Shown here one piece after another: positions 7,337 through 23,785 of a stretch of 24,321 bases of DNA. Below the pieces are notes generated by a model. It saw only the letters and a list, made by a program, of their open reading frames with translations. It did no database searches and had not been told where the DNA came from. Each line of letters begins with the position of its first letter. Within the stretch, counting starts at the first letter, position 1. The stretch is from a bacterium (GTDB taxonomy: Bacteria > Hinthialibacterota > Hinthialibacteria > Hinthialibacterales > Hinthialibacteraceae). The DNA lies in contig JBHGBC010000088.1 in assembly GCA_041946805.1 (NCBI GenBank), positions 1 to 24,321 of the forward strand. The letters are read 5' to 3'. Position numbers and translations under genes: made by a program.

Positions 7337-9094
7337 TCATCGGTCCGACAAGACGATCTCCTGCTGGCTCCGCCCGCCCTTGGTGGAATCCACCGTCACC
7401 ACCACCGGCGCTTTTCCACGCACGAGGAATTGCACCCGCTCCGAATCCATCCCGGGGATGGTTGGGATTTCCACCCGGTAGGGCCGCACCAGCACCGGAT
7501 CCACCCGCTTGAAGTAGGGATCCGCCACCCGGCCGGAACTGACCACCCGTTCTTCGGGCATCGTCACCACGTCGGGCGGATTGATGTGGTTTTTGACATC
7601 CTGTTCGATCCGGGTGGGAATCATCCCCTCGTTGCGCACTTCGATCCACACCTTGAACAAGTCCTCACCGGCCGGTTCCACCTTGATTTCCCCGAATGCG
7701 ATCCGGGGCATCGACGAGGCGTGGTACAGGGTGAAGGCCATGTTCCGGTGGCACTCCTCCTCCAGCAGGAACGAAGGCGGAACCCGGCTCCATTCCTTGT
7801 GAAAACCACCGATCTCGATCTTCCCGTACGTAGGGTGATCGTATTCCTTCCATTTCGTCAGGCCGTCGTTCATCAACAGATACTTGATGAACTCGGCTTC
7901 GGCCTCATCGTCCGTCCGGTCGCTCCGGAACATGTTCTTGGTGGTCCATAGTTCGTTGGTGAAGGCCAAGATCCCCCGCGCGCCGTAGAACCAGTCCACT
8001 TCGCCGCCCCACAGGGTGTAGAGGTCCCGCCAGATCACCATGGACCGGTAAAAGGGCAGCGTGAGTTCGCCCTTGGCGGCAATTTCGCTGAGCACCCGGT
8101 CGTCGCGGGGCTGCATGTCGCCGCCCTCCCGCTGCGGGCCGCGCAGGATCATGCCGCCGTTGTTGTGATACGACTGCATGCCCGCGATGTTGGGATGGCT
8201 GATCACGAATTGGGACACCGCCCGCGTTTCGGGCAACGAAAAGGGAAAATCCCGCGCGCCCCATTGCACATACGGCGGCTGCCAGTCGAACGCCCAGTTG
8301 CGGTTGGAATCGTAACCCCCGGGCGCGTCTTCATCGATCCGGCCGTCGCCGTCGTTGTCGATTCCCTCCCAGCCCAGCATGGTGAACTCGCCCCGCTCGT
8401 CCGCTTCCGCGGGAACCATCAGGTATTCCGGATACTTGGGATGGGGCTTCATCCGGCCGTTGGGATCGCGGATCCGCATCAGGGTGATGGATCCATCGCC
8501 GTCCAGATCGTCGAATCCGTCTTCGTCCACCTGCCCGTCGCGGTCGTCGTCGAGCGGGACCAGGCCGGAACGCGAGGAATGCGGCGTGTTGGCGTTGTGA
8601 AACCAAAAATCACGCCCGTCCGGATTGATGGTGGGGATCAGGTAAAAAACGAACTGGTCCACCAGCCGCGTGACCGTTTCGTTCTTCCCGTACATCTCGC
8701 ACAAGTACCAGGCGGTATACGCCACCACCTCGCCGGCCTGCACCTCGTTGCCGTGGATGTTGCCGTCGATATACATCCCCGCCTTGCGCGACGGATCGCC
8801 CGTTTGCGGATTGCTCACTTCCAGGCACCAGATCGGCCGCCCCTGATAAGAGTCACCGATGGAATACAACCGCGTCAGGTTGGGAAACGCGTTATGCAGG
8901 CGCTTGAGGATATCCGCCAGACCCGCGGCATCATTGAACCGGTTCCAGGCCACCTCCACCCGCCGTTCGGCCGGCGCGCCCAACGCCTTGAATACATGCG
9001 GACTCTCTTCCGCCCCGGCTCCCGGAGATAATAGAATCCCGCCGGAAACCAGACCGATCCACGCGAATCGTTTCATCTTCTGGATCATGCTCAT
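7337..9094 (-). CDS. M14 family zinc carboxypeptidase, secreted, predicted active
   Basis: HxxE zinc motif GNIHGNE, plus NPDG, NRN, third ligand SYHNNG and catalytic Glu in FTNELW. DxDxDG inserts and a signal peptide are present. Confidence 0.9.
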   Translation of the reverse strand: MSMIQKMKRFAWIGLVSGGILLSPGAGAEESPHVFKALGAPAERRVEVAWNRFNDAAGLADILKRLHNAFPNLTRLYSIGDSYQGRPIWCLEVSNPQTGDPSRKAGMYIDGNIHGNEVQAGEVVAYTAWYLCEMYGKNETVTRLVDQFVFYLIPTINPDGRDFWFHNANTPHSSRSGLVPLDDDRDGQVDEDGFDDLDGDGSITLMRIRDPNGRMKPHPKYPEYLMVPAEADERGEFTMLGWEGIDNDGDGRIDEDAPGGYDSNRNWAFDWQPPYVQWGARDFPFSLPETRAVSQFVISHPNIAGMQSYHNNGGMILRGPQREGGDMQPRDDRVLSEIAAKGELTLPFYRSMVIWRDLYTLWGGEVDWFYGARGILAFTNELWTTKNMFRSDRTDDEAEAEFIKYLLMNDGLTKWKEYDHPTYGKIEIGGFHKEWSRVPPSFLLEEECHRNMAFTLYHASSMPRIAFGEIKVEPAGEDLFKVWIEVRNEGMIPTRIEQDVKNHINPPDVVTMPEERVVSSGRVADPYFKRVDPVLVRPYRVEIPTIPGMDSERVQFLVRGKAPVVVTVDSTKGGRSQQEIVLSDR

Positions 9095-10830
9095 TCTCCT
9101 TTCCCGGTGAGCGTCACGGTTTGCCGGGCGCTGCCCCCCAGGGCGGAGACCACCTCCACCGTCACTTCCTGCCCTTCCTGTCCCTGCAGCACGTATTTCA
9201 CCTCTTCCACGCCTCCACTGCCCGCGAGTGGGCCGATCCGGGTTTTCTTCTCCCCGGCCAGAATCGCTTCCCGCGGCAGGCTGATCTCCACCCGGGTGGG
9301 GAAAATCTCGCCGGACCGCTCGCCGTGCGCCAGCATCGTCGGCAGGTAGCCCGTATTGATGACCTTTACGGTGAGCTCAAAAACTCCCGCTCCCAGGGAT
9401 TTGGCCTTGATCTCGTGAATCCCGATCCGGGGCAGATTCCCCGCCAGCCAGAGGAGATACTGGATGTTCTTCTCCTTCAGATCGCCGAACACCGGACGCG
9501 GCGGCAGGACCTTGGCGTAGGGCGCGAACCCCCCCACTTCCGCTTCCTGTCCGGGATAATCGGGATGCTCGACCGATTTCCATGGCACGAAATAATCCGG
9601 CGCGTTTTGGTCGAGCCATTCCAGATACTTCTTCTCTTCCTTGCCCCGTTTTTCTTCTTTTTTATCTTCTTGTTTCTCGTCCTGCTTCTTGTCTTCCCCC
9701 GTATCAGTGGCTTCTCTCTTCAAGCCCAGGGCCACGCCGGGGCTCCAGGGCGGCGTGGTCAACGAAAGGCGTCCCCGGTGGAAATAGATCCAATCGGCGA
9801 AAGATCCCTTCGCCGTCCCGGTTTCGACCGCCTCCTTGATCCCGAGTTTTTCACGGTATTGATCCCCCAGGAACTCGTAATAGGCGATGTCTTCGTTGCG
9901 GATCTTGGTCTGCGGCTTGTTTTCGGGCGACTTCTCGCCGGCTTCGGGTTTCTTCAGCAAATTGCCCTGCCCACAGAACGTGAACACCAACCCGATGTGG
10001 GGGTGCGTGATGATGAATTCCGCCAGGCCGCGCGTTTCGGCTTCACTCATGGGATGCAGGCCGGATTCCTCACCGAACCAGGGGTACTCGAAGGGAAAAT
10101 TGGCGTTCAGATTCACCCCGCCGGTCCGGTCTTCGTTGATTTTCTCGTCTTGGTCATTGTCAAATCCTTCCTGGAACAGCAGCCATCGGCCCGCCTCGCC
10201 CTTGGCGGAATCGGCTTCGATCAGGATGCGGCCGTCGCCGGGATGTTCCATGAACTTCCCTTTCGGGTCCCGCACCCGGAGCCACGTGATCAATCCGTCC
10301 CCGTCCAGATCGTCCGGACCGTCCTCATCCACCATTCCATCATGGTCCTGGTCGCACGGTGTCAGGTTGGCGGCTTGTTCCACTCGCGGAGTGCGCGTGT
10401 ACCGTTCCGCCGCGTCGGGATTCAGGCAAGGAACCACGTAAATCGTGACCGTGTCCAATAGTGTTTGGTTTTCCTCCGCCGGGGATTGGCACAGCGATTC
10501 GATGAATCCCAGGGCGAATTCATTCCCCGCCAGGGTGTTGCCCTCCACGCCGGACACCACCAGCATCGCCGGCCGTTGACTCCGTTCTTCCGGCATCCCC
10601 CGGCCGATTTCACAGAGCCACACGTCCCGGTTCTCCCGGGTCCTCGCAAGGGTAGTAAGTTGCAGGATGTCCGCGTGCGCCTCGCTCCACAACCGGAGAT
10701 GTTTGGACATTTCGGCATAGGAATGAAGTTCCGGCCGGCTGGACGGCTCCGCCCCTTCCGCCGGAGCGATTCCGCCGGTCAGGACGCCCAGACACACCGC
10801 CAGGACGGTTGAATACCATTTGGGTATCAC
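9091..10830 (-). CDS. M14 carboxypeptidase homologue lacking catalytic residues (pseudopeptidase), secreted
   Basis: Collinear with the downstream M14 protein, but has SGVEGNT, NAN, TFCGQ and TTPPW at the motif positions. The probable start is GTG 10830 with a GGGAGG RBS (alternative ATG 10863). Its stop overlaps the next start (ATGA). Confidence 0.85.
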   Translation of the reverse strand: MIPKWYSTVLAVCLGVLTGGIAPAEGAEPSSRPELHSYAEMSKHLRLWSEAHADILQLTTLARTRENRDVWLCEIGRGMPEERSQRPAMLVVSGVEGNTLAGNEFALGFIESLCQSPAEENQTLLDTVTIYVVPCLNPDAAERYTRTPRVEQAANLTPCDQDHDGMVDEDGPDDLDGDGLITWLRVRDPKGKFMEHPGDGRILIEADSAKGEAGRWLLFQEGFDNDQDEKINEDRTGGVNLNANFPFEYPWFGEESGLHPMSEAETRGLAEFIITHPHIGLVFTFCGQGNLLKKPEAGEKSPENKPQTKIRNEDIAYYEFLGDQYREKLGIKEAVETGTAKGSFADWIYFHRGRLSLTTPPWSPGVALGLKREATDTGEDKKQDEKQEDKKEEKRGKEEKKYLEWLDQNAPDYFVPWKSVEHPDYPGQEAEVGGFAPYAKVLPPRPVFGDLKEKNIQYLLWLAGNLPRIGIHEIKAKSLGAGVFELTVKVINTGYLPTMLAHGERSGEIFPTRVEISLPREAILAGEKKTRIGPLAGSGGVEEVKYVLQGQEGQEVTVEVVSALGGSARQTVTLTGKGE

Positions 10831-11187
10831 CTTGTTCCTCCCGCTAAAAAATTGATTTTCCATGGAAACCCCGTGCGGTTCTCCCCATCAGAAACGATGG
10901 AATTAGGGAATAACTTCAGTCAGATGCACTGGCAAGATGAGGGAACTCCACCAGGGATTCCAAGTTGCCAAGAAATCAGTAACACGATATAAAGCCCTAT
11001 TTCGTATTGCAAGGGATACTCTGCCGGCAAGAAAAGGTTCGGGGGAGATAATGAATCTACGGGAGGACTCATTGGTAAGCCTCTACGTCATGAATTTCAT
11101 CAGGGAATAGAATCAATCATTTTGGGGCGCGAGCTACGTCGGCGGCGAAGTTGAGGTCAAAGGGTAAAAAAGTAAAAGAACAAAGGG

Positions 11188-12633
11188 CTATTTCGTCCTG
11201 GACAACCGGAAGCCATCGTTGTAGTTCTCGTCGACCGGGTCGGCCCTGTAACGATCTGCAGATCGGCAGAACCTGGCATCGAAGAACCAGTCGCCACCCC
11301 GATACACTCTAGACGAACCAGAATTTACACCTGTAGGATCAATCCGAACAAGCGGATTCGAGGGCTCCTCCCACCAATCATTGCACCACTCCCAGACGTT
11401 CCCATGCATATCATACAATCCCCAGGGATTGGGTAATTTCAGTCCCACTTCGTGCGTTTGCCTCCCTGAGTTCCCGCACCACCACATGCATAGATCATGG
11501 TCCGCGCAACTTCCACACGCGTCATCGCATTCCAACACATTCCCATGCGAAAACCGCCAAGTTGTTCCTGCCCGGCAGGCGCATTCCCATTCCGCCTCGG
11601 TCGGCAGCCGGTACCCGTTGGCGTTCCAGTTCGTGGCCCACGTGGATTCATTGTAAACCGGCGTCAATCCTTCCCTTTCACTCAGCCGGTTACAAAAGGC
11701 CGCACACTCATACCAAGTCACGGATTCAACCGGATTATTGGACTTCCCACTAAAAAAGGAGGGATTGTTATTCATGATCGCTTGGTATTGCGCCTGGGTC
11801 ACTTCGTACCGGCCGATGTAAAAATCCTGGGTCAATATCACTTGGTGCAGAGGCCAATCATAACCTTCGTTTCTTCCCCGCTCGTCAGCAGGGCTACCCA
11901 TCGCGAACGTACCGGCCTTGATCAGCACCATTTCCAACGGCTTGGCCTCGGCGGGGAGGTTGGGGAGGGGGATGGTGATGGTTTCACCATGATTCCCATT
12001 TCCAGTTGAAGTTATGCTGAGCATGGCCGGATCGCTTGCATCCCCGTTCAAAAATTCTTCATCGTAATACCGCCCCGGCGTCAGCAAGTACACGTCGAAA
12101 TTATCCAGATAAACCGTGAGTGTCCGGGTTGGGCTGGTGTTATAAATCTGGATAAAGGGTTGGAAACCGGTGGTGGGCGGAACATACAGCGTTGATATCC
12201 ACTGATAACGATTGTGGAAAGTGGAACCATTCGCCGGGCCATTGAACGAAGCGTATTGATCCTCCCCGATATCCACCGCCGCGATGTGGACCTGGGCTTC
12301 CGGGCCATCCGCCCGCACGCTGCAGCGGATGATCCCCGCATGGGGTGAGGTAAGCGCTTGCCCGAATATCATCACTCCCTTGCCGGGTTGGGCCGTCACC
12401 ACCGCTCCCCGCCCATCAGTCGCGCCCGGGAACGCGTTATCCGAGGGAATGGATCCATACGTTACATCCGCTTGGTGCAGCGTATTGAACCCGGCTCCCT
12501 GGATCGTGATCCGATTCTCTTTCGCCGTATTTCCCGAAAAATCCACCCGCATGGGTTGGTCCTGAGCGGCACACCAGCAGGAAAAGAGAAAAGATCCCCA
12601 AAGAACCGCGATTGATATCAAAGTACGCTTCAT
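11188..12633 (-). CDS. Secreted protein with C-terminal FGE-sulfatase (SUMF1, C-lectin fold) domain; candidate DGR target
   Basis: Motifs FAMGSP, YEVTQAQY, PVESVTW, YRLPTEAEWE, PNPWGLYDMHGNVWEWC and RGGDW...GFRL. Signal peptide and an unknown N-terminal domain precede them. Confidence 0.92.
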   Translation of the reverse strand: MKRTLISIAVLWGSFLFSCWCAAQDQPMRVDFSGNTAKENRITIQGAGFNTLHQADVTYGSIPSDNAFPGATDGRGAVVTAQPGKGVMIFGQALTSPHAGIIRCSVRADGPEAQVHIAAVDIGEDQYASFNGPANGSTFHNRYQWISTLYVPPTTGFQPFIQIYNTSPTRTLTVYLDNFDVYLLTPGRYYDEEFLNGDASDPAMLSITSTGNGNHGETITIPLPNLPAEAKPLEMVLIKAGTFAMGSPADERGRNEGYDWPLHQVILTQDFYIGRYEVTQAQYQAIMNNNPSFFSGKSNNPVESVTWYECAAFCNRLSEREGLTPVYNESTWATNWNANGYRLPTEAEWECACRAGTTWRFSHGNVLECDDACGSCADHDLCMWWCGNSGRQTHEVGLKLPNPWGLYDMHGNVWEWCNDWWEEPSNPLVRIDPTGVNSGSSRVYRGGDWFFDARFCRSADRYRADPVDENYNDGFRLSRTK

Positions 12634-12686
12634 GATGCCCTATCCAAAAAAGGTAACACTCGTATTGTCTCGATATTACCTCATAT

Positions 12687-12800
12687 TTAGGTTCATCCGG
12701 AAAGTGCGTACTTTTCATCAAGCATATCCGTCCGCCCTTCAATCGGGCTGGCCGCGGAGAACCACCATTTTATCCCATCTCCCTCTGGGAGAAGGGATTA
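12687..12800 (-). repeat. Dispersed ~120-bp repeat, copy C
   Basis: The minus strand reads CCTTCTCCCAGAGGGAGA ... GAAAAGTACGCACTTTCCGGATGAACC, matching the hairpin and end motif of the other copies. Confidence 0.6.
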
Positions 12801-17677: not shown

Positions 17678-18841
17678 TTAGCGGTTCACTGAATCATCGC
17701 GACGGCTAATCCGGTCCGCTTTCCAGAATGGCGCGGCATCACGGCGGGCATGGAGGGAGACCTCATCCAGTTCGATTTCCGCCGGCCCGCCGCGCACTTG
17801 CAGAATCAGCATCTGATCGTGCATTTCCGCTGCGGCCATCTGGACTGGATGCTCGATCAGGCTCCAGGAATCGTCCGGGAGGGAGGCGGCGGGATAATCG
17901 CTGTACCCTCCACTCTGTGTGCCCGGGCTGAAGAGCGCAAGGGATACCACGCCTTCTTCTCCCCGGGTCCGGCGGACCCGTGCCTGGGCGTAAATCCTGG
18001 CGGGATAGGAATGGATCTTTTGAAAATCCGCACTCGGGGGGAGGGGCAATCTGACTTGAATGACATCTTCCATAGTCCGCGTGCCCAGACAATAAGTAGG
18101 TCTGCCCGGACTGGACGAATGGGCCGGTGTGACTTCACTGGATGCCCGGCAATAGGCGCCTGATGTGGACGGAGGCACATGAATAACCGGTTGCTCGTTG
18201 ATCCAATCCGCGCCATCCACCGAAACGAGGCGGGACGCCCCCAAGGCCTGGTCCTGGTCTGAATAGTCCTCCAGAAGCCGGAGACAATCCAGCGACACTT
18301 TGGTTTCACCGGATTCCGGTCCCACCAGCTGGATGAGCCATTGAACCGACTGAAGCCCTGGGCGTTGAAATTCCAGGGAAAAATCCCGCAACTCCGGCCC
18401 CCAATCCGGCTGGGACCGGATGGCCACGGCCAGATGCTTCGGATTCCGGGCGTCATACACGGCCATCGCCGTCTGGCCGGGTTTTGGCCCATCCGCGGCG
18501 ATCCGGCAAGACATATAGACGGAACCGCTCGAAACGGGGATCGTATTCGATACGAACTGGACAGCTTCGCCCGGCTGCAGGATTACCGTGATTCGATCCG
18601 GCCCGGCTTCATGGCGGGGCAACGGCCGATCCAACACCGGAAGCGCTTTCCACCCCCGTTCCAGCAGCGAGGGGGCGTGAGGATCGCTTCCGGGCGGATT
18701 CACGCCGGCCCCGATTGGGATCAGCAGCACATCGAAATCGTCAGCGGCCGAAAGCGGTTGTGCCCCTCCAGGCAAAATGAAAAATGACAACAGAACGATG
18801 ACGGCCGAAATGTACAATATCCCACGGCAGCCAAAAAGCAT
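17678..18841 (-). CDS. Secreted hypothetical protein with probable tandem beta-sandwich domains
   Basis: Long ORF with a signal peptide from ATG 18841 (MLFGCRGILYISAVIVLL) and an AGGGGG RBS. Shares motifs with the N-terminal domain of the FGE-sulfatase protein. Confidence 0.75.
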   Translation of the reverse strand: MLFGCRGILYISAVIVLLSFFILPGGAQPLSAADDFDVLLIPIGAGVNPPGSDPHAPSLLERGWKALPVLDRPLPRHEAGPDRITVILQPGEAVQFVSNTIPVSSGSVYMSCRIAADGPKPGQTAMAVYDARNPKHLAVAIRSQPDWGPELRDFSLEFQRPGLQSVQWLIQLVGPESGETKVSLDCLRLLEDYSDQDQALGASRLVSVDGADWINEQPVIHVPPSTSGAYCRASSEVTPAHSSSPGRPTYCLGTRTMEDVIQVRLPLPPSADFQKIHSYPARIYAQARVRRTRGEEGVVSLALFSPGTQSGGYSDYPAASLPDDSWSLIEHPVQMAAAEMHDQMLILQVRGGPAEIELDEVSLHARRDAAPFWKADRISRRDDSVNR

Positions 18842-19591
18842 GGCAATACCCCCTGATCGATTGCTTCTCATAAAGGCATGGGATAAATCCGTGATCCCAT
18901 AAAAACCCATCGGGCAAATTGGAACTCTCTTCTCCTTCTGGAATTTGTTGGATCAGCGGCGGCATCCGCATAGAAATTACTTTTTCCCCGATTGTAAACC
19001 TTCCATAGATTCGGCAGGCCGATGCCCATGGCCATAAAAATCACTTGGCTATACTCTTCAACCGTGTTATCCGCCTCATTGACGGTGGACCTGGTTGTTG
19101 CATGGGAAAGGAAAACGAATGGCGGAAAAAGACTCCTCGATGCAGCAAATCACCCTCCGCTTTACACCGCCTGGATCTCACTCCCGAAATGGAAAAGCAC
19201 TCATTTCGCTCCATCCCTAAAGAATATCACTAAATCTTGATGCCTGTCAATAACATGTTTTCATGGCTATATGTGATGGTGGTTGCGGGCAATGTCGGAT
19301 TCCGCGGCGGTGCGCTCGAGAAGAATGAATTTAACGGATTAAAGACATACGGGCAGTATGTTTTGCCCCTGGTAGATATCCAGGAAGAATTGGGGCCCCT
19401 TCGAACGGCTCTTTGGCATTTTCTGCCCGGCTGAAGCCCGGGGCAAGTTTTAAAAGATAATATACAAGGGTTGTCCATTCATTGATTCGCAGCCGTTTGG
19501 GTACCTTTGGGAAACGCCTGGGAGAAAAGAGGCGGAAATCTCAGCCCTTTCCGCACTCCAGTGAACTGAACATGACTCAATTCAATCAATC

Positions 19592-22536: not shown

Positions 22537-22609
22537 CCTCTCCCAAAAATCCATGATCATCTCCCCGGATTTATGCTACAGTATTAGGAGAACCGAGAGG
22601 GGGATGCCA

Positions 22610-23785
22610 ATGAAATTGACGGATCGGTTTATCCGCAATGTTTCCTGCCCGGCCGGCTCAATAGAAAAAGTTTATTGGGATGACCGGCGGCGGGGTTTGG
22701 GACTTCGGGTCCATGCCCAGGGGACAAAAACCTTCATAATCCATTACCGGTACAAGGGCAAGCAATATAAGATCAGCCTGGGCCATCCGCCAGAGATGTC
22801 GGTTCGGCAGGCTCACAGTAGGTACTCCGAATTTATGCTCAATTTGGACCGGGGTAAAAATCCCAAGGAAGAGGTGGTGGCAAACGAAATATCCATGGGT
22901 GATCTGGTATATACCTATTTGGATCGGCATGCCCGGATGTTGAAATCGGGCCCGGCTCAGAAATGGGCGCTGGAAAAATGGGTAGTGCCCCGATGGGGAG
23001 AGTGGCCCGCCTCTTCGATTCGCCGGCTGGATGTCGATGAATTGCACAAGGAAATCGGCCGAACCTCGCCGGTGATGGCCAATCGTTTAGTTTCTCTGCT
23101 GCATGTGATTTTTAGTTTTGCCAAAAAATGGGGTGTCCTTAAAACCAGTGAGGAGAATCCGGCGACCTTTATTGAACGGTTCCCGGAAAAGAAGCGCACG
23201 GTGTGGGTAGTCCCCGAGGACATGGATAAACTCATCCGGGCCCTGGAACCCGAGAACGTTTTAATTCGAGCCGCCATTTTGCTTTATTTAACCACCGGGC
23301 TCAGGAATCGGGAGTTAGTCCGCCGGCGGTGGGAGGATATTGATTGGGAACGCAAAATTTTGATCTTAACCGAAACAAAATCAAAGCGGCCATTTCTTTT
23401 GCCCTTATCGGATGCCGCCTTGGAGATTTTGAAGGGGATTCCACGCTTTTTAGGCAATCCGTATATTTTCCCCAGTAATAAAAAAGGCAGACCGTGGACT
23501 CAATTCCCCCGGAATGCTCTGTTGCGAATTCGGAGCCGGATCGGCATGAACATCACCGTTCACGATTTACGAAGAACCTACGGCTCCTGGCTGGCCTCCA
23601 GCGGGATCTCCTTGAAAATCATAGCCGGCCTGCTCAATCAAACCAGTCAAAGCATCACCGACTCGGTGTACTCCCAGTTGGCCAACGATCCCCTCCGGGA
23701 AGCCGCCAGCATTGTCGGAGAAAAGATCCGGCAAATTGCGGAAGGAGAACACAAAAAAAACAATACGATTGGCAATGAAGAGTAA
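22610..23785 (+). CDS. Tyrosine recombinase/integrase with N-terminal arm-binding domain (P4-like)
   Basis: Arm-binding domain YWD..GLGLRV..GTKTF..YR. Catalytic motifs TGLR, TKS and HDLRRT, plus Tyr in SVY. GAGAGGGGG RBS before ATG 22610. Confidence 0.93.
   Translation: MKLTDRFIRNVSCPAGSIEKVYWDDRRRGLGLRVHAQGTKTFIIHYRYKGKQYKISLGHPPEMSVRQAHSRYSEFMLNLDRGKNPKEEVVANEISMGDLVYTYLDRHARMLKSGPAQKWALEKWVVPRWGEWPASSIRRLDVDELHKEIGRTSPVMANRLVSLLHVIFSFAKKWGVLKTSEENPATFIERFPEKKRTVWVVPEDMDKLIRALEPENVLIRAAILLYLTTGLRNRELVRRRWEDIDWERKILILTETKSKRPFLLPLSDAALEILKGIPRFLGNPYIFPSNKKGRPWTQFPRNALLRIRSRIGMNITVHDLRRTYGSWLASSGISLKIIAGLLNQTSQSITDSVYSQLANDPLREAASIVGEKIRQIAEGEHKKNNTIGNEE

Follow-up and report, generated by a model that had tools for sequence, protein, structure and literature searches.

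A probably orphaned target of a diversity-generating retroelement in a genome of the Hinthialibacteraceae

The FGE-sulfatase-like gene studied here lies in a window of 24,321 nucleotides, by which we mean the whole stretch of DNA that was analysed; it is contig C303 of the assembly G000 (6.7 Mb, 315 contigs, 96.8% complete). Sequence comparison gives good support to the view that the end of this gene is, by origin, the variable region (VR) of a diversity-generating retroelement (DGR). It is probable that the VR belongs to an orphaned DGR target, written by adenine-directed retrohoming from a template repeat (TR) like that of locus L073 in a relative. Its differences from family TRs are biased to adenines, a conserved element follows the stop codon, the hairpin behind it carries a deletion, and both TR and Avd are missing from the assembly. 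Since neither a matching template nor an Avd was found, and since the hairpin is broken, the target is now likely frozen. The features of the gene, in positions of the window, are as follows.

11188–12633, minus strand: DGR target gene, an intact ORF of 481 aa with a signal-like N-terminus, a beta-sandwich, a linker and an FGE-sulfatase/CLec domain
12565–12633, minus strand: predicted Sec-type signal peptide, residues 1–23, read from the sequence, whose start is basic, and from a hydrophobic helix that the model shows
12079–12558, minus strand: predicted all-beta, CBM4-like N-terminal domain, from a structure match; kept in 11 aligned relatives and paralogues
11203–11934, minus strand: FGE-sulfatase/C-type lectin-fold (CLec) domain, from Pfam and the best PDB match, TvpA 2y3c
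11206–11307, minus strand: DGR variable region (VY-RGGDW...NDGFR), with diversified codons at about 11292–11215
11191–11214, minus strand: putative IMH region (codons GFR-LSRTK), assigned by position after PMC5758913; cognate targets have homologous 3' ends
11158–11187, minus strand: pyrimidine tract after the stop, ending in TTACCCTTTG, common to the proven cis targets and the targets on contig C36
11128–11147, minus strand: broken remnant of a GC-rich hairpin, CGCCGCCGACGTAGCTCGCG, from alignment with relatives and folding

The codons on which the original prediction was based were found at 11307–11203 (minus strand), closing the 481-aa ORF. The sole Pfam match in the encoded protein is PF03781 (FGE-sulfatase; residues 234–477, E 1.8e-46), and the top PDB match is TvpA 2y3c (sequence E 8.9e-34, fold E 6.6e-15), a DGR target of Treponema denticola. 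For the N-terminal domain a Pfam search gave no match, while its predicted fold matched the CBM4 module 3p6b_A (E 1.7e-7, target TM 0.54, 12% identity). The model of the whole protein had a mean pLDDT of 68, with low confidence in the VR segment, and the N-terminal domain folded poorly alone from its single sequence (pLDDT 53.6). The prediction is thus of an exported protein with two domains, in which the variable face of the CLec domain would bind a ligand and the CBM4-like domain likely serves as a tether to a glycan. The formylglycine-generating enzyme SUMF1 has the same fold as the target domain, but in place of the C-terminal FGE catalytic motif of two Cys, which is absent, the segment RGGDWFFDARFCRSADR of the target protein holds one Cys. 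The closest named record to the CLec domain is L130 (71%), labelled Ca. Omnitrophota; GTDB places such genomes under OLB16/Hinthialibacterota.

The template used for comparison was the TR of L073, in the relative G012; it is non-cognate and comes from another genus. Against this TR, the window VR is mismatched at 19 of 33 adenines and at 9 of 63 other bases (Fisher p 1.7e-5). Eight of the nine non-adenine mismatches fall at third codon positions, and only 1 of 31 bases at positions 1–2 differs, as would be expected for a related, non-cognate template. The translation of the L073 TR, RGGNWNNNARNCRSANRNRNNPNNTNNNNGFR, fits every position, from RGG to GFR, that had been specified for the predicted AAY-rich template. 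At the AAY codons of the family TRs, all 11 counterparts in the window VR end in C or T, compared with 51% in the rest of the gene (P ~6e-4). When the AAY codons of L073 are considered, the C/T third base is kept in 15 of 15 cases, 13 of which encode Asp, Phe, Tyr or Asn.

Because FGE ends all share scaffold residues with the TR, paralogue ends were used as a control. The control set consisted of 28 CLec ends, all equal in length and found through protein searches only, and it omitted ends of other length (for example, the C36 type) and ends failing the pattern. Non-adenine mismatches to the nearest TR numbered 7–13 in the five ends bearing the post-stop motif, that of the window among them, and 11–25 in the remaining 23 (Mann-Whitney p ~0.001). 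Of 11 variable codons, 10–11 ended in C/T in the motif-bearing ends and 4–11 in the rest (p ~0.001); significance in this test is overstated, since kin among the ends are not independent. A score of 11 of 11 is also reached by two of the 23 ends without the motif, and the third-base sign is therefore no proof by itself. The original prediction had warned that the NNC/NNT signal is partly compositional; the signal in the window VR exceeds composition. An earlier class test on 45 ends was partly circular, some loci having been recruited with DNA that contained the motif, and was replaced by the 28-end set. Among the 10 of 27 PF03781 matches of G000 that have comparable ends, the window end ranks first, with 9 non-adenine mismatches, followed by that on contig C238 (12) and the rest (18–24).

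The stop of the target gene (TAG, 11190–11188) is placed five codons past GFR, the same as in three cognate targets, and the 3' end together with the pyrimidine tract ending in TTACCCTTTG aligns with four cognate targets. A chance match to this post-stop element, with up to 2 mismatches, occurs in ~0.001 of 45-nt windows of G000. The CCCTTTG pair pointed out in the original prediction does span 11187–11158, but as a direct repeat it is not kept in relatives; what is conserved is the tract ending in TTACCCTTTG. In the relatives, the downstream pyrimidine run is longer and is followed by a stem, for example GCTGCGCC-loop-GGCGCAGC. Compared with them, the window is missing ~25 nt, including the start of the hairpin 5' arm, and the 3' arm is altered, leaving at 11147–11128 the degenerate GC-rich hairpin that had been noticed in the sequence. 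The longest perfect stem is 3 bp in the window and 5–8 bp in the cognate targets L072, L077 and L091, and the fold z of the window's downstream element is +0.73, although the cognate target L071 folds poorly too. In model systems, a GC-rich hairpin after the IMH is needed for efficient homing. No terminator- or promoter-like sites were detected at 10850–11250. Hairpins are present in just 34% of DGRs, according to PMC5758913.

Complete target-avd-RT-TR cassettes are present in relatives from the same family. Across 35 genomes of the class, the reverse transcriptase (RT) encoded on contig C36 of G000 found matches in 10 at E <= 1e-20, in 8 of these (G000 included) at no less than 42% identity, and an Avd query matched 8 of the 35. 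Relatives have seven close RT loci, and in six of them an Asn-codon-rich TR lies at the RT 3' end. In five cognate VR–TR pairs of the class, 16–24 adenines differ and only 0–1 of 62–67 other bases, which indicates that the DGR system is real in this lineage. Motif-bearing targets for which no core was found occur in G014, G018, G024 and G028. As the target of G014 has an intact hairpin, the absence of the core from MAGs may partly be assembly loss.

The target L091 (G012:C111, 107–513), with 0 of 63 non-adenine mismatches to the TR on C79, has an intact 8-bp hairpin followed by a truncated TR fragment in place of avd. In G010, the FGE paralogue L090 (C1, ~279240) has internal stops, and its 3' end is an unmutated TR with TR-type downstream sequence; this fusion is ~400 kb from the RT cassette of G010 and may record a VR–TR recombination that deleted avd and RT. 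Also in G010, L063 and L099 (C8, 1.04–1.05 Mb) are large multi-CLec proteins whose internal domains, joined by Pro/Thr linkers, end in former VRs that are 6–12 non-adenine changes from the family TRs and 6–7 from G010's own TR.

The window contains no RT or TR, as had been noted from the sequence, and no Avd. It was not possible to detect a TR in the G000 assembly, which is incomplete, by blastn (word 7), by an A-tolerant ungapped scan with the window and C36 VRs, by an AAY-density scan, or with the TRs of two relatives as queries; the first of these is the genome-wide short-word search that the original prediction had suggested for a copy differing only at adenines. A match on C150 was ruled out, being an Asn-rich low-complexity stretch. 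No match to the L072 Avd was found in G000, where the best hit to PF22296 (E 0.096) was below the cut-off. The single RT of G000 (C36:1150–2232) retrieved only itself by tblastn. Its identity to the RTs of five cassettes in the class is 41–53%, and it has the GNLTSQ motif, with FADD where six of six other RTs have Y-x-DD. Phe at that position occurs in some active RTs, and FADD was not accepted as proof of a dead enzyme. An FGE gene ends 80 nt ahead of the RT gene, which has neither an avd in front nor a TR following. The array to which it belongs (L029, C36:218–2232 onward) comprises five FGE/CLec paralogues of a 33-codon VR type, with the RT after the first, and its neighbours are AAA ATPase, Hsp70-like, kinase and PP2C genes. 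C36 was rejected as the cognate core because its VRs comprise 33 codons and are built on another scaffold.

Outside the assembly, pattern scans for a cognate TR gave no matches in genome_contigs, metagenome_contigs and viral_contigs, collections from which G000 records may be left out. A second scan of metagenome_contigs gave two matches, to a DGR whose TR, with 15 of 68 non-adenine mismatches, is not cognate; two further TRs among 47 loci are more distant, with 24 non-adenine mismatches each. In X1, a possible source run, the VR lies on one contig, without differences and at a depth of 13.2. When all X1 contigs were searched with the L073 TR, which is ~90% like the expected cognate TR, only six short pieces were found, at depths of 2.4–4.1, none near 13.2. 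Runs X2–X15 gave small shares only, with X2, X3 and X4 showing relatives, not this strain, and in the raw-read run X17 the VR was not covered. These run results are to be read knowing that contigs drop rare variants, that the read records are filtered, and that 13x falls under the 20–50x range at which under-detection has already been noted (PMC8144416).

The target gene stands alone between lexA and two M14 peptidase genes. It is missing from the syntenic lexA–M14 interval of G001, of the same genus, which has other sequence there, and no FGE genes were found in 19 lexA flanks of the family (1.5 kb on each side); the gene therefore occupies a variable site. Between lexA and the target gene (12685–12800) is a dispersed repeat of ~110 nt with 103 matches in G000, 74 of them 80 nt or longer. 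The M14 zinc carboxypeptidase genes (7337–10863, minus strand) are in tandem and syntenic in G001, and a third copy was seen in G018. At 17678–18910 (minus strand), a 410-aa protein with no Pfam match and a syntenic homologue in G001 resembles, by eye, the N-terminal beta-sandwich of the target protein. A tyrosine integrase with an arm-binding domain (22553–23785, plus strand), near the contig end, likely marks the boundary of a mobile element.

The closest paralogue in G000, L006 (C238, 156–1982), shares 84–87% DNA identity with the target gene over the domain and 60% over the VR, which is of another TR type. It has an intact 7-bp hairpin and is a candidate for a live target, better in this respect than the gene of the window; after it, at the contig end, another paralogue begins, which has an early stop. 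The genome thus has three VR types (window, C238 and C36) and no assembled template. By composition, C238 and C36 are outliers, ranking 2 and 5 of 201; given this, and with 315 contigs, the core could have dropped out of the bin.

An alternative to the orphaned target is that the gene is still live as a remote target and that an avd-RT-TR core missing from the assembly diversifies it in trans. We regard this as unlikely, though with a chance that has to be reckoned with. In its favour, the VR has a clean signature and the ORF is intact; against it stand the hairpin deletion and the single invariant contig over the VR. The binning outliers among the DGR-related contigs of G000 could explain a missing core, yet the whole of run X1, which reaches beyond the bin, lacks a TR-like contig at the depth of the organism, and four public-collection pattern scans, from which G000 records may be left out, were without a cognate TR. 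Distant or duplicated targets do occur in the family (for example, that on G012:C111, at 0 of 63 against a TR on C79), and remote FGE-type targets of chromosomal DGRs are described in PMC5758913. The original prediction was that a DGR located elsewhere in the genome diversifies, or once diversified, the protein in trans. Its past tense is supported by the adenine-biased differences from family TRs; the present tense has against it the missing TR and Avd, an RT in an array of another VR type, the broken hairpin and the invariant X1 contig.

It is also conceivable, if improbable, that retrohoming never took place at this gene and that the true target was a paralogue, from which the gene received its VR through duplication or gene conversion. 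The drop in identity to the C238 gene at the VR suggests that 3' ends are exchanged among paralogues, internal copies of former VRs are found in the multi-domain proteins of G010, and the gene is at a variable site; however, a donor with the same VR type was not found in G000, and the post-stop element and hairpin remnant travelled along, as in a whole former target. Least credible, and largely refuted, is an ordinary FGE-family C-terminus with a compositional pattern. Asp, Phe, Tyr and Asn, which make up 13 of the 15 C/T-ending codons, have obligatory C/T ends, two of 23 ends without the motif reach 11 of 11, and the scaffold residues are common to any FGE end and the TR, but against these stand the lowest non-adenine distance in G000, a stop placed as in cognate targets and a post-stop motif with a chance of ~0.001 per window.

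Under the preferred explanation, that of an orphaned target, and going by DGR biology, an RT–Avd complex would have copied the TR RNA, misreading A, and the cDNA would have replaced the 3' end of the gene at the IMH. One variant would have become fixed later, after loss of the core or a move of the gene to another place. The intact ORF and the C/T third bases kept at 15 of 15 L073 AAY codons indicate that any freezing is not old.

Comparable cases are described in the literature. FGE-type targets account for 19% of DGRs, and remote targets are known (PMC5758913); isolates of T. denticola that lack both RT and TR have leftover targets (PMC4891356). Like the TvpA-type targets (CLec1 VR, category b of PMC5758913), the window gene encodes an FGE/CLec protein with a C-terminal VR, and like them and the leftover T. 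denticola targets it is far from an RT and has a predicted export signal. The TR comparison was made with other genera only, and the differences are mostly at adenines, as in the TvpA-type targets, whereas the lineage is another one, the CBM4-like N-terminal domain is extra and the hairpin is visibly deleted. In the partial DGRs of DUSEL4 Nanoarchaeota, for which the ambiguity between fossil and remote target has been stated (PMC4372165), target, VR and cis elements are likewise present without an RT; those targets, however, are reported as orphan proteins in a genome with complete DGRs, of which G000 has none assembled. Multicellular bacteria have clade 5 DGRs in which CLec sensors are part of conflict systems (PMC10907252). 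Their targets are chromosomal and of the FGE/CLec type, as here, and the C36 array has AAA ATPase, Hsp70-like, kinase and phosphatase genes around it; unlike those targets, the protein of the window is predicted to be secreted and is without an NTPase or effector domain. The literature searches brought up no paper devoted to DGRs in this lineage; PMC7495880 contains both terms, and published DGR tables may include these genomes.

The window gene is therefore a further example of something already described, a DGR target without its core. Because surveys anchored on the RT miss remote targets (PMC8144416), the DGR history of this uncultured lineage is likely undercounted. The post-stop element and the state of the hairpin offer a way of sorting FGE paralogues into live, frozen and never-targeted. 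More tentatively, transient DGR cores with different templates may rewrite the 3' ends of CBM4-like/CLec paralogues and then be lost, sometimes by VR–TR recombination, while the frozen domains are duplicated into multi-CLec proteins; the three template-less VR types in G000, the core-less targets in G014, G018, G024 and G028, and the fusion and former VRs of G010 are suggestive of this. If so, the outcome would be a fixed repertoire of secreted, glycan-tethered binders, and DGRs would supply a large family of secreted proteins with fixed paralogue diversity.
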